Below are positions 3,001 to 9,000 of a DNA stretch of 64,000 bases, one piece after another (position 1 is the stretch's first letter; the number at the start of each line of letters is the position of its first letter). The stretch lies in assembly GCF_058153355.1 (NCBI RefSeq), contig NZ_CM177019.1; one strand, given 5' to 3'. A program made the position numbers.

Positions 3001-6000
3001 CGCGAAAAGGAGACAGCGAAGAAAAACCAACCGGGAAAATGGACGTAAAAGGCTCTGGAGCGATAACAGACCTGACAGACAACCTTTTTATCATCTGGCG
3101 TAACAAGGCTCGCGAGAGAGCGTTACAGAGAGTTCAGAGTGGTGAAAAGATGTCAGAGAAGGACGAACAGTTACTGGCGTCTCCTGCATCTGTTTTGATG
3201 CTTGAAAAACAACGTAACGGCGAAGGCTGGGAAGGTGGTGTCCCGTTGTTCCTTGACGAGCAATCGCACCAGTTCCTGCAACTTGAATCAGGATCGCCAT
3301 ATAGCTACATCGCCAATATGCCGAAATCGGAATATGACGAAGCGTGGCGACAGGAAAACATAACGGAGTATTAAATGACCATCTACATCACAGAGCTTAT
3401 AACAGGTCTGCTGGTAATCGCAGGCCTTTTAATTTGGGGGAGAGGGAAGTCATGAAAAAACTAACCTTTGAAATTCGATCTCCAGCACATCAGCAAAACG
3501 CTATTCACGCGGTACAGCAAATTCTTCCAGACCCAACCAAACCAATCGTAGTAACCATTCAGGAACGCAACCGCAGCTTAGACCAGAATCGAAAGCTTTG
3601 GGCTTGCCTTGGTGACGTCTCTCGTCAGGTTGAATGGCATGGTCGCTGGCTGGATGCAGAAAGCTGGAAGTGTGTGTTTACCGCAGCATTAAAGCAGCAG
3701 GACGTTGTTCCTAACCTTGCCGGGAATGGCTTTGTGGTAATAGGCCAGTCAACCAGCAGGATGCGTGTAAGCGAATTTGCGGAGTTATTAGAGCTTATAC
3801 AGGCATTCGGTACAGAGCGTGGCGTTAAGTGGTCAGACGAAGCGCGACTGGCTCTGGAGTGGAAAGCGCGATGGGGAGATCGGGCTGCATGACTATCAAA
3901 TCAAATACGCCAGCACACGACAAGGACTGCTGGCAAACGCCACTTTGGCTTTTTGATGCGCTGGATATTGAGTTTGGATTCTGGCTGGATTCGGCAGCGA
4001 GCGACAAAAATGCTCTGTGCGCTCACTGGCTAACTGAGGCCGACGACGCGCTCAATTCTGAGTGGGTAAGCTACGGTGCAATCTGGAATAATCCACCGTA
4101 CAGCAATATCAGGCCGTGGGTGGAAAAAGCCGCTGAGCAGTGCATACAACAGCGACAGACGGTAGTTATGCTTGTGCCAGAGGATATGTCAGTCGGATGG
4201 TTCAGCAAGGCTCTGGAGAGTGTTGACGAAGTTCGCATCATCACTGATGGACGGATTAATTTTATCGAACCATCGACAGGGCTGGAGAAAAAGGGAAACA
4301 GTAAAGGCTCAATGCTGCTGATTTGGCGACCGTTCATCAGTCCCCGGCGAATGTTTACTACCGTATCCAAAGCGGCATTGATGGCGATCGGGCAGGGCGT
4401 CAGGAGGGCGGCATGAGGCGACAGCGACGAAGTATTACCGACATAATCTGTGAAAACTGCAAATACCTTCCAACGAAACGCTCCAGAAATAAACGCAAGC
4501 CAATCCCAAAAGAATCTGACGTAAAAACCTTCAACTACACGGCTCACCTGTGGGATATCCGGTGGCTAAGACATCGTGCGAGGAAATGACTATTTATCCG
4601 GTGCGCCGCCAGAATGACGGCGCGGTGTGGTTAAACGAAGCGGATCTGGAGTTTTTTTCCAGTAGCGCGGGCGAATTTTTTTAGGGTGGCAAATGATGGG
4701 CCGCTGATACCTGATGCGAGATTACTTTCCATTCTGGTGATCGCGGTCGCTTTTGTTCCCATTCGCTCGGCAACTTCAGCCTGAGTTAAGCCAGCTTCTT
4801 TGCGTGCTGCCAGCATTTCATCAAGCAGTGCGAATTCGTCAGCGATAGCGTCGTATTCTGCTTTAAAAGCCGGGTCTTCCATCCATTTGGCTGCCATTTC
4901 GTCGTGTGTCATGGTGGGGAGAGTGCGTTTACCAGTCATGCTTAACCTCCTTCATTCTGGTTTCAGCTTTCTTGCGTTCGGCTGGCGGTGTTTTCTGCGT
5001 TTTCTTTACAAAACTATGCAGCATGATGATGCGTTTCCCTGTCAGAGTGCAGTAAAAAACACGCGCGATCCCATCGTTGCCTTTAATTCTGAGTTCGAAA
5101 AGCCCGTCACCAAAGGCGCTGGTGTGAGGTTCTCCGAGATTGCTGCCATATACCTTCATACGTTCAACGAGATGTTGGTATCGGGCACGCATACTCAATG
5201 GAAGCCGATCGACTTCCAGCCTTACATCTTCACTGTAGTATTCGATAGTGTAGTTCATAGGTATCAACATAACAAAATCGTTATATGCATTCAAGGCCTG
5301 TAGTTGACGACAACACATATCCGGGGCTATATTCCTCATACGCCAGCAAAATCTGGCGTCGGGATTGAGACCCCGGATGTTTACGGAGCGATATGAGACG
5401 CGCCCGCGTCTTTTTTCATATCGTTTGCACAGTCACATTCGCGATTTATGGTGGGCTGTGTGGGGGAGCCGAAAGGCTCGCCGGTTTCCGTACCCGGTAG
5501 TCTCAACCCTGCACAGCTCGCCACCAGATGATTGAGACCAGAAGGTGGCGATAATGACCAAATGTACGGAGTTATCGTTATGCTCACTCAAATTTCTGTC
5601 GACACTCTTCCTGCAATCACCCACAACCAGATCCCCGTTATTACAACTGAACTTCTGGCGCAGTTATACGGAACAAAAATCAAAAACATTTCTGATAATT
5701 TTCTGAACAACACGACGCGATTCGTGGTAGGAAAGCATTACTTTAAAATTGAAAAAAACGAATTACGCGAGTTTAAGAACAGACCCGAAACAATCGGGTT
5801 AGTTGGTAAAAATGCCCGCTCTCTTATCCTCTGGACAGAACGAGGCGCAGCCCGCCACGCAAAAATGCTCGAAACCGATCAGGCGTGGGACGTGTTCGAA
5901 AAACTGGAAGACTGCTATTTCAGCCAGACTTCGAAAAGCGCAGGTCATCACGAGAAGAAAACCAGCGAGCTTTCTGCAAAAGATGCAAACAGTCTGGTAT

Positions 6001-9000
6001 GGTTGTGGGATTATGCCAACCGCTCACAGGCATTATTCCGCGAACTGTATCCGGCATTAAAACAAATTCAATCGAACTATTCCGGCAGATGCCACGACTA
6101 CGGTCATGAGTTCTCGTATGTTATCGGAATGGCGAGAGACGTTTTAATCAATCACACACGAGATGTTGATATTAATGAGCCAGACGGACCAACGAATCTT
6201 TCTGCATGGGTAAGACTTAAGAACAAAGAATTACCTCCTTCACTGCATCACTACTGACAGATTGCCAACGCAACGACCCAGCTTCGGCTGGGTTTTTTAT
6301 TGCTGAATTTTCAATATGAGAGGACATGACAATGAACGAGCTGATAAATAGCAACGCCATCAAAATGACCAGCATTGAAATCGCTGAGTTGGTGGGAAGT
6401 CGTCACGACAAGGTGAAACAATCTATTGAACGACTGGCGGCTCGAGGTGTGATCCGAAATCCCCCAATGGTGGTTTTCGAAAAAATCAATAACTTAGGGT
6501 TACTTCGTGGCGTAGAGGCTTACGTTTTTGAGGGCGAACAAGGTAAGCGAGATAGCATTATTGTCGTCGCCCAATTGTCGCCGGAATTCACCGCTCGTCT
6601 TGTTGACCGTTGGCGAGAGCTTGAAGGGGCAACCGCAAAGATTCCACAAACCTTTTCTGAGGCATTGCGCCTTGCGGCTGACCTTGAAGACCAGAAGGCT
6701 GAATTGGAGAAACAGCTTGCTCTCGCGGCACCTAAAGTTGAGTTTGCCGATCGCGTTGGCGAGTCCAGCGGAATTTTGATTGGAAACTATGCAAAGGTTG
6801 TTGGTATTGGTCCAAACAAACTGTTTGCATGGATGCGCGATCACAAAATCCTTATTGCTTCAGGTTCCCGGCGCAATGTGCCAATGCAGGAATATATGGA
6901 TCGCGGCTATTTCACAGTGAAAGAAACAGCAGTCAACACAAATCACGGAATACAGATATCGTTCACCACAAAAATCACCGGGCGTGGCCAACAGTGGCTG
7001 ACCAGAAAGCTGCTCTATAACGGAATGCTGAAAGTAACAGGGGAGGCTGCTTAATGGCTAACTTACGCAAAGAAGCGCGCGGCAGAGAATGCCAGGTACG
7101 TATTTACGGCGTATGCAATGGCAATCCTGAAACTACAGTTCTGGCACATTACCGGATGGCTGGAATTTGCGGAACGGGAATGAAGCCTGACGACCTGATC
7201 GGCGCATGGGCTTGTAGCGCGTGTCACGATGAAATCGACCGACGCACCCATAACCTCGACAACAAAGACGCCAGACTTTACCACCTCGAAGGCGTGCTCA
7301 GGACGCAGGCGATACTGCTGAAGGAGGGGAAGATTAAGCCATGAACGAATATCAGTTTGTGCTTCCATACCCACCGTCGCTGAATACCTACTGGCGAAGA
7401 CGGGGAAGCCAATACTACATCAGCGATAAAGGCCAGAAATACCGAAAAGATGTACAGCAAATAATCCGCCAACTCAAGTTAGACATTTTCACCAAATCAC
7501 GACTCCGCATCAAAGTAATCGCAGACGTTCCAGACTCCCGCCGCCGCGACCTCGATAACATCCTGAAGGGTTTACTCGACTCCCTTATCTACGCCGGATT
7601 TGCGGAAGACGACGAGCAATTCGATGACATTCGCGTAATTCGTGGTGTGAAAGTACCAGGCGGAAGGCTTGTAATAAAAATCACCGAACTGGAGAACGTA
7701 TGAACAAAGCATTCGAACGATATATGCGCCAGCGTTATGGCAATCGCTACGATCTTACCCGCGATGCTTACGGCTTCTACTGTCGTGAGGTTGTGAAACG
7801 AATGTTTGAAGTGTGGTGTCATTGCAAAGGATAGAGGGGAAGACGATGAGACTCGAACGCGTAGCTAAATTTCATTCGCCAAAAAGCCCGATAATGAGCG
7901 ACTCACCACGGGCTACGGCTTCTGACTCTCTTTCCGGTACTGATGTGATGGCTGCTATGGGGATGGCGCAATCACAAGCCGGATTCGGAATGGCTGCATT
8001 CTGTGGTAAGCACGAACTCAGCCAGAACGACAAACAAAAGGCTATCAACTATCTGATGCAATTTGCACACAAGGTATCGGGGAAATACCGTGGTGTGGCA
8101 AAGCTCGAAGGAAATACTAAGGCAAAGGTACTGCAAGTGCTCGCAACATTCGCTTATGCGGATTATTGTCGTAGTGCCGCGACGCCGGGCGCAAGATGCA
8201 GAGATTGCCACGGAACAGGTCGGGCAGTTGATATAGCAAAAACAGAGCAGTGGGGGAGAGTTGTTGAGAAAGAGTGCGGAAGATGTAAAGGCGTCGGTTA
8301 TTCAAGGATGCCAGCAAGCGCAGCATATCGCGCTGTAACGATGCTAATCCCAAACCTTACTCAACCCACCTGGTCACGCACTGTTAAGCCGCTGTATGAC
8401 GCCCTGGTGGTGCAATGCCACAAAGAAGAGTCAATCGCAGACAACATTTTGAATGCGGTCACACGTTAGCAGCATGATTGCCACGGATGGCAACATATTA
8501 ACGGCATGATATTGACTTTTTGAATAAAGTTGGGTAAATTTGACTCAAGAATGGCAGATTTATATCCGTTCACATTCTTTCGGTTTTTTACCCACCTCAT
8601 CTTTAAGTTCTAAGCGCACTGACATGCGCATCATAAACTCGAGAGCACATAGGAATAGAGCCTGCATAACGGTTTCGGGATTTTTTATTTGGGTCAGTCG
8701 TATAAAGGTCATTACGGAAGGCTGTTAACCTTCTTATCGTGGTTCGAGTCCACGCTGTCCCGCCAAACATGCTGGTTTAGCTCCAATGGTAGAGCAGTCG
8801 CCTTGTAAGCGAATGGGTAGCGGTTCAAGTCCGTTAACCAGCACCATAACTGAGCCGTAGCCACTGGCTATCCTGAATTCATCAGTGACAGTTACGCTGC
8901 GGCCTTCTTTTTCCCTTCCCAATATAAGAACTACGCCATCCGTTATTTGCGGAGGTGAGGCTATGAAATCCATGGACAAAATATCAACGGGCATTGCCTA

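Follow-up and report, generated by a model that had tools for sequence, protein, structure and literature searches.

Two intrinsic terminators around an ORF6N-domain gene probably delimit an IsrK-C4 antirepressor cassette in a lambdoid prophage

The closest described relative of the locus considered here, an ORF6N-domain gene flanked by two intrinsic terminators in a 64,000-nt stretch of DNA (contig NZ_CM177019.1 of assembly GCF_058153355.1; the whole stretch is hereafter called the window), is the isrK-orf45-anrP-isrJ unit of Gifsy-1 in Salmonella Typhimurium (Hershko-Shalev et al. 2016). In Gifsy-1, the isrK promoter drives the downstream antirepressor gene anrP (280 versus 3 Miller units) on a plasmid without phage antiterminators, and part of the transcripts pass the IsrK terminator to give an approximately 910-nt mRNA that ends at the isrJ terminator and is translationally silent (PMC4825925). 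The short IsrK RNA, for which both Hfq binding and antirepressor activation in trans have been demonstrated, lifts anrP translation 139-fold when present in trans (PMC4825925). A related order is found in the immI region of P1 and P7, where the promoter(s) are followed by target copies a1 and b1, the antisense RNA C4, copy a2 right after C4 and copy b2 on the Shine-Dalgarno (SD) sequence of the next gene; there, too, recognition is allele-specific and the controlled product is an antirepressor. The third system is the ant-roi region of phage phi24B, in which Ant is weakly expressed in uninduced lysogens and an ant knock-out leaves late-promoter activity after induction at 27-56% of wild type (Fogg et al. 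2011, PMC3064807). Finally, the nin region of lambda carries the intrinsic terminators tR2-tR4, which lie on the rightward transcript between the replication genes and Q and are overridden by N. A preliminary description of the window had likened its two terminators to such nested nin terminators and had proposed that expression of the ORF6N-domain gene and of the genes downstream depends on antitermination.

We arrive at a different view. With a probability of about 80%, positions 5304-6298 form an autonomous RNA-regulated antirepressor cassette in the nin region of a lambdoid prophage, composed of a promoter, the small RNA IsrK with its terminator, a C4-type antisense RNA, the antirepressor gene and a second terminator (Table 1). 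The two hairpins with T-runs were indeed found at the positions reported before, and their distances from the gene (164 nt on the upstream side and 17 nt on the downstream side, given a gene start at ATG 5580 and a stop codon ending at 6257) are close to the earlier values. Both hairpins are also stable: folded alone, the upstream one has a minimum free energy (MFE) of -11.6 kcal/mol (z = -5.2) and the downstream one of -14.1 kcal/mol (z = -4.1; 200 dinucleotide shuffles each). A loose terminator pattern revealed no enrichment in positions 1-14000 (18 matches, 14.8 +/- 3.8 expected). Under a strict rule (at least five consecutive T directly 3' of a hairpin of -9 kcal/mol or better), the + strand of the first 14 kb contains only two sites, which are these two terminators, and both strands together contain 5 sites, as against 1.0 +/- 1.1 in shuffles.

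The upstream terminator constitutes the last 22 nt of the IsrK match. The promoter, PisrK, is the best sigma-70 match (10/12) within positions 1-14000 and ends 6 nt upstream of the IsrK start. Its -35 and -10 elements are kept in most of 11 aligned loci, though the sequence further upstream varies; the most divergent promoter among them (TTGATT/TACACT) belongs to locus L009. IsrK is thus predicted to be an RNA of about 77 nt with its own promoter and Rho-independent terminator. The Rfam model of the a1 and b1 targets of C4 (RF03163, c4-a1b1) also matches here, at 5327-5379, with 45.3 bits, slightly below its gathering score of 46.7. In an alignment of 44 diverged homologues, pairs of the IsrK terminator placed on MAFFT columns were 49.7% paired, as the stem variants were out of register, and this count was replaced by folding each sequence separately. 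By separate folding, the terminator (hairpin and at least five T) is kept in 44 of 44 homologues, with stems of 4-5 different sequences (GAGACGC, ACACGC, AACCGC and others) and energies of -7.7 to -11.5 kcal/mol. Such modest energies are compatible with partial read-through. Since the upstream terminator belongs to IsrK, which has a conserved promoter, the ORF6N-domain gene has a transcription unit of its own.

The C4-type RNA that follows has a stable predicted fold (MFE -46.7 kcal/mol, z = -4.8) and a tRNA-like 3' GCCACCA at 5519-5525, the one visible trait that bears on maturation from a precursor by RNase P, as expected of a P1-type C4. Two of its segments, a' and b' (site names follow P1 usage), are unpaired in the fold and complementary to a1 and b1 within IsrK. 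They are also complementary to sequences downstream of C4: a' to the core UUGAGAC (5532-5538) of a2, and b' to GUACGGA (5564-5570) of b2. Both target sites are therefore duplicated in the leader, as the 10-mer GATTGAGACC and the 7-mer TACGGAG.

Table 1. Features of the putative cassette and of its surroundings (positions in the window; RNA, promoter and target-site entries are predictions)
Feature	Position	Strand	Description
PisrK promoter	5304-5333	+	TTGACG, 18-nt spacer, TATATT; predicted start A5340
IsrK small RNA	5340-5416	+	Rfam RF01394, 70.6 bits (gathering score 50), full length 1-77
IsrK hairpin 1	5340-5359	+	
IsrK hairpin 2	5360-5375	+	loop holds target copy a1
a1	5363-5372	+	GAUUGAGACC; loop of IsrK hairpin 2
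b1	5382-5388	+	UACGGAG; IsrK linker ahead of terminator
Upstream terminator	5395-5416	+	7-bp stem 5395-5401/5406-5412, loop GCCC, then six T to 5416
C4-type antisense RNA	5444-5528	+	Rfam RF01695, 75.9 bits (gathering score 45), full length
Small frame within C4	5448-5531	+	27 codons; counterpart of Gifsy-1 orf45
b'	5487-5493	+	UCCGUAC; C4 recognition loop
a'	5500-5506	+	GUCUCAA; C4 recognition segment
a2	5530-5539	+	GAUUGAGACC; 2 nt past C4, same 10-mer as a1
b2	5564-5571	+	GUACGGAG; overlaps SD GGAG (5568-5571), 8 nt ahead of ATG 5580
Antirepressor gene	5580-6257	+	ORF6N N-terminal and P22AR_C C-terminal domains, 225 aa
Downstream terminator	6275-6298	+	8-bp stem 6275-6282/6287-6294, UUCG loop, then TTTTTTATT
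cII	25-324		
O-like, primase/helicase (P-like), NinB, Dam and NinE genes	between cII and ~4600		
Toxin-antitoxin pair	4631-5339	-	
roi-like gene	6326-7054	+	Rha N-terminus and ANT/KilAC (Pfam); first gene past the downstream terminator
YbcO	7054-7344		
RusA	7341-7703		
Q	7813-8469		
Two tRNAs, then lysis genes	from 8691		

To assess the conservation of this scheme we turned to homologous loci. In each of the 11 other loci tested, IsrK and C4 occur in tandem ahead of an antirepressor-type gene (Gifsy-1, phi24B, P27, Nil2, JLK-2012, VT2phi_272, PhiR12_5, Stx2_131990, 2H10, an E. coli chromosome and a phage record labelled Actinobacillus). An exact-match scan of IMG/VR with a 21-mer of IsrK added 120 further loci, which represent 81 distinct module sequences. 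Site 'a' agrees at the IsrK loop, the C4 segment and the post-C4 site in 69 of the 74 distinct IMG/VR modules that could be parsed; the agreeing modules span nine alleles of this site, and two further alleles occur in diverged phages. For statistics on the helices we used the alignment of 44 homologues mentioned above. Pairing amounts to 99.7% in the a1:a' helix and 98.4% in the a':a2 helix, and in each of them both partners have changed at 5 of 7 pairs; when the partners were slid by 1-3 columns as a control, pairing dropped to 33-50%. For the C4 stems the value is 99.7-100%, and both sides have changed at 11 pairs. At site 'b', the C4 loop matches its cognate IsrK target over a mean of 6.2 nt (non-cognate, 3.7 nt) and its cognate SD-proximal target over 6.7 nt (non-cognate, 4.1 nt). 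In every homologue the downstream 'b' copy abuts or overlaps the SD sequence. The 44 sequences comprise 11 a' alleles and 15 b' alleles in 27 combinations, indicating that recognition alleles reassort. Taken with the compensatory changes within C4 (stems) and IsrK (hairpins and terminator) and in the two intermolecular helices, which require selection on the RNAs, these comparisons support the promoter, both RNA genes, both terminators and the pairs of target sites. They also suggest that the conserved control point is post-transcriptional, namely base pairing of C4 at the ribosome-binding site, with which IsrK would compete as another target.

Several of the collected loci have peculiarities of their own. 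Three modules are mosaics. In locus L029 (440-694), a1 of IsrK reads GAGAC while its own C4 and a2 read AGGAA; in L121 (7953-8207) and L076 (10262-10516), the region after a2 has been replaced and the antirepressor start lost. These three are natural recombinants, in which IsrK would mismatch its own C4. The record labelled 'Actinobacillus phage vB_Apl-pPE4' (L010, PP818812.1) has a module 92% identical to that of the window amid typical enterobacterial lambdoid sequence, and its Actinobacillus pleuropneumoniae host label looks doubtful. In phage Nil2 (L007, 2953-3036), an Rfam sRNA-Xcc1 match of 79 bits lies inside an annotated retrotransposon that disrupts ant. Across 5,426 complete E. coli genomes, sequence matching this 2.6-kb region occurs at up to 9 places per genome; no record of the E. 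coli collection covers the region completely at an identity above 93%. In the window itself, the UGAGAC that forms the 5' side of the IsrK terminator stem (5394-5399) is complementary to GUCUCA of a', so that C4 could in principle compete with formation of the IsrK terminator. This complementarity may be a coincidence, because L010 has the same terminator and a different 'a' allele.

The protein encoded between the two terminators has the domain composition of an antirepressor (Pfam ORF6N, E = 2e-20; P22AR_C, E = 4e-28). It is 84% identical to phi24B Ant over its full length, and its N-terminal 120 residues, which correspond to the ORF6N domain, are 93% identical to Gifsy-1 AnrP. The start was assigned by alignment with homologues: the alternative starts TTG 5532 and ATG 5562 were rejected, as ATG 5580 matches the start in all of them. 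We also rejected an icd-like reading frame (ATG 5554-5706) in an alternative frame and with a good SD sequence, since both its ATG and its frame are missing from the homologues. More generally, no conserved reading frame was found across homologues between C4 and the antirepressor gene. The orf45-like frame within C4 is probably not a conserved coding feature either. Among the 44 homologues, its counterparts range from 8 to >50 codons in frames that are not conserved, and a stop overlapping the antirepressor ATG occurs in one of them only, Gifsy-1; in the window the frame stops 51 nt upstream of ATG 5580.

How does the locus compare with the systems described above? With Gifsy-1 it shares the order of promoter, IsrK and terminator, followed by the same structured RNA (C4 in Rfam, STnc1160/orf45 in PMC4825925), an antirepressor and an intrinsic terminator that ends the unit, which is about 910 nt long there and 959 nt here (5340-6298). 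The recognition allele, however, is GAGAC/UACGGA in the window and GGCGU/UCACCG in Gifsy-1. In addition, orf45 of Gifsy-1 has 45 codons and a stop overlapping the ATG, whereas the 27-codon frame of the window is uncoupled. The window's antirepressor has a C-terminus of the P22AR_C type, its closing terminator is unrelated to isrJ (no Rfam match to isrJ at E <= 1 in the window, compared with 100 bits for Gifsy-1 isrJ), and the cassette is placed in the nin region, ahead of Q, and not directly behind Q as in Gifsy-1.

The likeness to P1 immI extends to the C4 fold, in which a' and b' occupy the same places, and to the leader: that of P1 matches the isrK model (35 bits, E = 2e-5), with a weak hairpin and then ATTTTTG at its end. 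In the window, by contrast, the leader ends in a clear intrinsic terminator, which predicts a discrete small RNA. The window also lacks icd, which is present in P1, so that b2 lies on the ribosome-binding site of the antirepressor itself; the antirepressors belong to different families (Ant1/2 in P1, ORF6N/P22AR_C in the window), and P1 is a plasmid prophage rather than a lambdoid one. Phage phi24B has the same order of ninE, IsrK, C4, ant, terminator, roi, further nin genes and Q, and the same terminator hairpin after this C-terminal type of antirepressor (seen in L001, L005 and L006). Its IsrK and C4 RNAs are unannotated, its recognition allele is different, the nin genes past roi are ninG-ninH instead of ybcO-rusA, and in the window alone, ninE and the promoter are separated by a toxin-antitoxin pair on the opposite strand. 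Both RNAs are curated Rfam families, the type of locus has been dissected in Gifsy-1, and its logic is that of P1 immI. The copy in the window is distinct in its recognition allele, in having neither icd nor a coupled orf45, in its P22AR_C-type antirepressor and in its site upstream of Q next to a toxin-antitoxin pair.

By analogy with P1 c4/ant and Gifsy-1, the cassette would work as follows. Transcription from PisrK that stops at the first terminator would yield the 77-nt IsrK, while read-through would produce an RNA of about 960 nt, carrying C4 and the antirepressor message and ending at the second terminator. C4, acting in cis or once processed, would occlude the ribosome-binding site and keep the antirepressor silent in the lysogen. 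Terminated IsrK would offer C4 a competing target and so relieve repression; because of this competition, the first terminator would determine how much activator RNA is made relative to the RNA that contains both repressor and message. The second terminator would bar PisrK transcripts from roi, ybcO, rusA and Q, so that Q would still depend on early transcripts originating in the immunity region, presumably with N. The antirepressor, when produced, would help to inactivate the prophage repressor and promote induction. A more specific proposition equates IsrK with the P1 c4 leader: in lambdoid phages, the released RNA would mimic the targets of C4 and titrate this antisense repressor away from the ribosome-binding site of the antirepressor. 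Gifsy-1 itself would then be largely under P1-type a2/b2 control, and the alleles would amount to a combinatorial second-immunity code. We consider the chances of this proposition to be about even.

A number of points weigh against this account. Termination efficiency, C4 processing and the direction of the IsrK effect are carried over from homologues. Activation in Gifsy-1 through translation of orf45 coupled to anrP is not simply transferable, as the window's frame has 27 codons and ends well ahead of the ATG. Mutating a1 of Gifsy-1 in cis increases basal expression (PMC4825925), which would not be expected if IsrK were a simple decoy. A second terminator is found in part of the family only: one satisfying the strict rule lies within 100 nt past the antirepressor frame in 42 of 89 modules and is missing from the other 47. 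Predicted energies of the short duplexes are modest, with two of four no better than those of shuffles, and prediction of full-length RNA duplexes gave long artificial duplexes that were uninformative. Since the thermodynamics of the short duplexes is only partly separable from that of shuffles, we used covariation as support.

It might be argued that the Gifsy-1 mechanism applies unchanged, with IsrK in trans opening the ribosome-binding site of the small upstream reading frame in an inactive read-through RNA, this frame being coupled to the antirepressor and C4 having no separate antisense role. Direct genetics and footprinting in Gifsy-1 (PMC4825925) speak for this mechanism, and ATG 5448 is conserved in 44 of 44 homologues. 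However, that ATG is part of the invariant 5' stem of C4, which accounts for its conservation, and the frame it opens shifts and varies in length as described above, the overlap of stop and ATG being peculiar to Gifsy-1. Such a mechanism would also leave unexplained why the third target copies, downstream of C4, covary with C4. The Gifsy-1 mutations G28A and G31A and their partners C162U and C159U map exactly to the a1 and a' pentamers, yet the compensatory double mutants did not restore full repression (224 and 327 versus 4 Miller units; PMC4825925), as an additional a':a2 pairing would predict. On balance, we regard an unchanged Gifsy-1 mechanism as unlikely. The opposite simplification, that the locus is a plain 'moron' made of a promoter, a gene and a terminator, with the Rfam matches being sequence relics, seems highly improbable. 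A promoter and a terminator do bracket a single gene, and the second terminator forms a mosaic block with one antirepressor allele. In many alleles, however, base pairing in the stems of C4, in the hairpins and terminator of IsrK and in the two intermolecular helices is maintained by compensatory changes, which requires selection on the RNAs.

There remains the reading offered at the outset, in which the terminators are nested like tR2-tR4 of lambda and the ORF6N-domain gene and those downstream are expressed only through N-modified polymerase. Its structural part holds: both terminators are intrinsic, on the + strand and on the path from cII, O and P to Q. They are joined there by a third, weaker hairpin (8 bp, 3404-3427, followed by TTTAATTT) past the P-like gene and before ninB, a position resembling that of tR2. 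Phage phi24B, whose cII-O-P region is 97.5% identical to the window's, has annotated N, nutL and nutR, and Sy et al. place IsrK under an antitermination-regulated promoter (PMC7547250). The window begins at cII, and N and nutR would lie upstream of it. Unmodified RNA polymerase from the early promoter would stop at these terminators, and with three hairpins ahead of Q and N, nutL and nutR annotated in phi24B, N-dependent read-through towards Q is plausible. It is likewise plausible that roi, rusA and Q depend on read-through of the second terminator, because the 27 nt that separate its T-run from the ATG of the roi-like gene contain no obvious promoter. For the ORF6N-domain gene itself, however, dependence on antitermination is not borne out, and as a whole the nested-terminator explanation appears improbable. 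Unlike the lambda terminators, terminator 1 closes a small RNA that belongs to a curated family and is preceded by a conserved promoter of its own, and the pair bounds a separate unit. The homologous Gifsy-1 promoter, as noted above, transcribes its antirepressor gene on a plasmid without phage antiterminators (PMC4825925), and phi24B ant is transcribed in uninduced lysogens (PMC3064807). It is the RNA-RNA pairings at the ribosome-binding site, moreover, that covary strongly, and this speaks for translational control. We thus retain the RNA-regulated cassette as the preferred explanation.

Within that explanation, the second terminator probably closes the IsrK-C4-ant unit and insulates roi, ybcO, rusA and Q from PisrK. 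Its hairpin, ACCCAGC-UUCG-GCUGGGU, follows every antirepressor allele with either of two C-terminal endings, in 22 modules with one loop variant; 20 of them are distinct modules whose antirepressor C-terminus ends in [HR]Y, and 2 have the second ending. Antirepressor alleles with other C-termini are followed by different hairpins (isrJ in Gifsy-1) or by none detected within 100 nt. The roi-like gene past the terminator has the same length and position as roi of phi24B.

Further observations concern the surroundings of the cassette. The toxin-antitoxin pair, inserted between ninE and PisrK, consists of an HTH_3 antitoxin (4631-4939) and a Gp49/RelE-ParE-like toxin with a probable start at 5258 (- strand); its promoter must sit back-to-back with PisrK. 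Among the loci compared, this insertion is present only in the window and in E. coli FDAARGOS_943 (L001). On the - strand at 270-300, inside the 3' end of cII, there is a strong intrinsic terminator (12-bp stem, T-run) whose position and orientation match those of the terminator of oop, the antisense RNA of lambda. The interval from Q to the holin gene contains tRNA-Asn (GTT) and tRNA-Thr (TGT) at 8691-8846; phage P1 has an annotated pair of these two tRNAs, likewise in this order (L132, 24348-24501). Elsewhere, matches to a group II intron (D1-D4 and domain V/VI; 51411-53717), a naRNA4 repeat (58836-58912) and MicF (62580-62673, - strand) indicate that the window passes from the prophage into E. 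coli-like chromosome near micF/ompC.

At the level of annotation, the finding is a correction: positions 5304-5579, a region that is blank or filled with spurious small reading frames in most phage records, contain two predicted regulatory RNA genes and their targets. The gene they would control helps to trigger prophage induction in relatives, Shiga-toxin phages included. The comparison also joins work on Salmonella IsrK with work on P1 c4, which a 2025 review of phage small RNAs lists as separate entries (PMC12197685); the equivalence of IsrK and the c4 leader, like the reassortment within the allele repertoire, may be under-appreciated. As the recognition sequences are polymorphic and reassort, allele-specific cross-talk between co-resident prophages is predicted. 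If the equivalence is true, the published Gifsy-1 model left the a2/b2 sites unconsidered, and a combinatorial second-immunity code would decide which co-resident prophages trigger each other's antirepressors.

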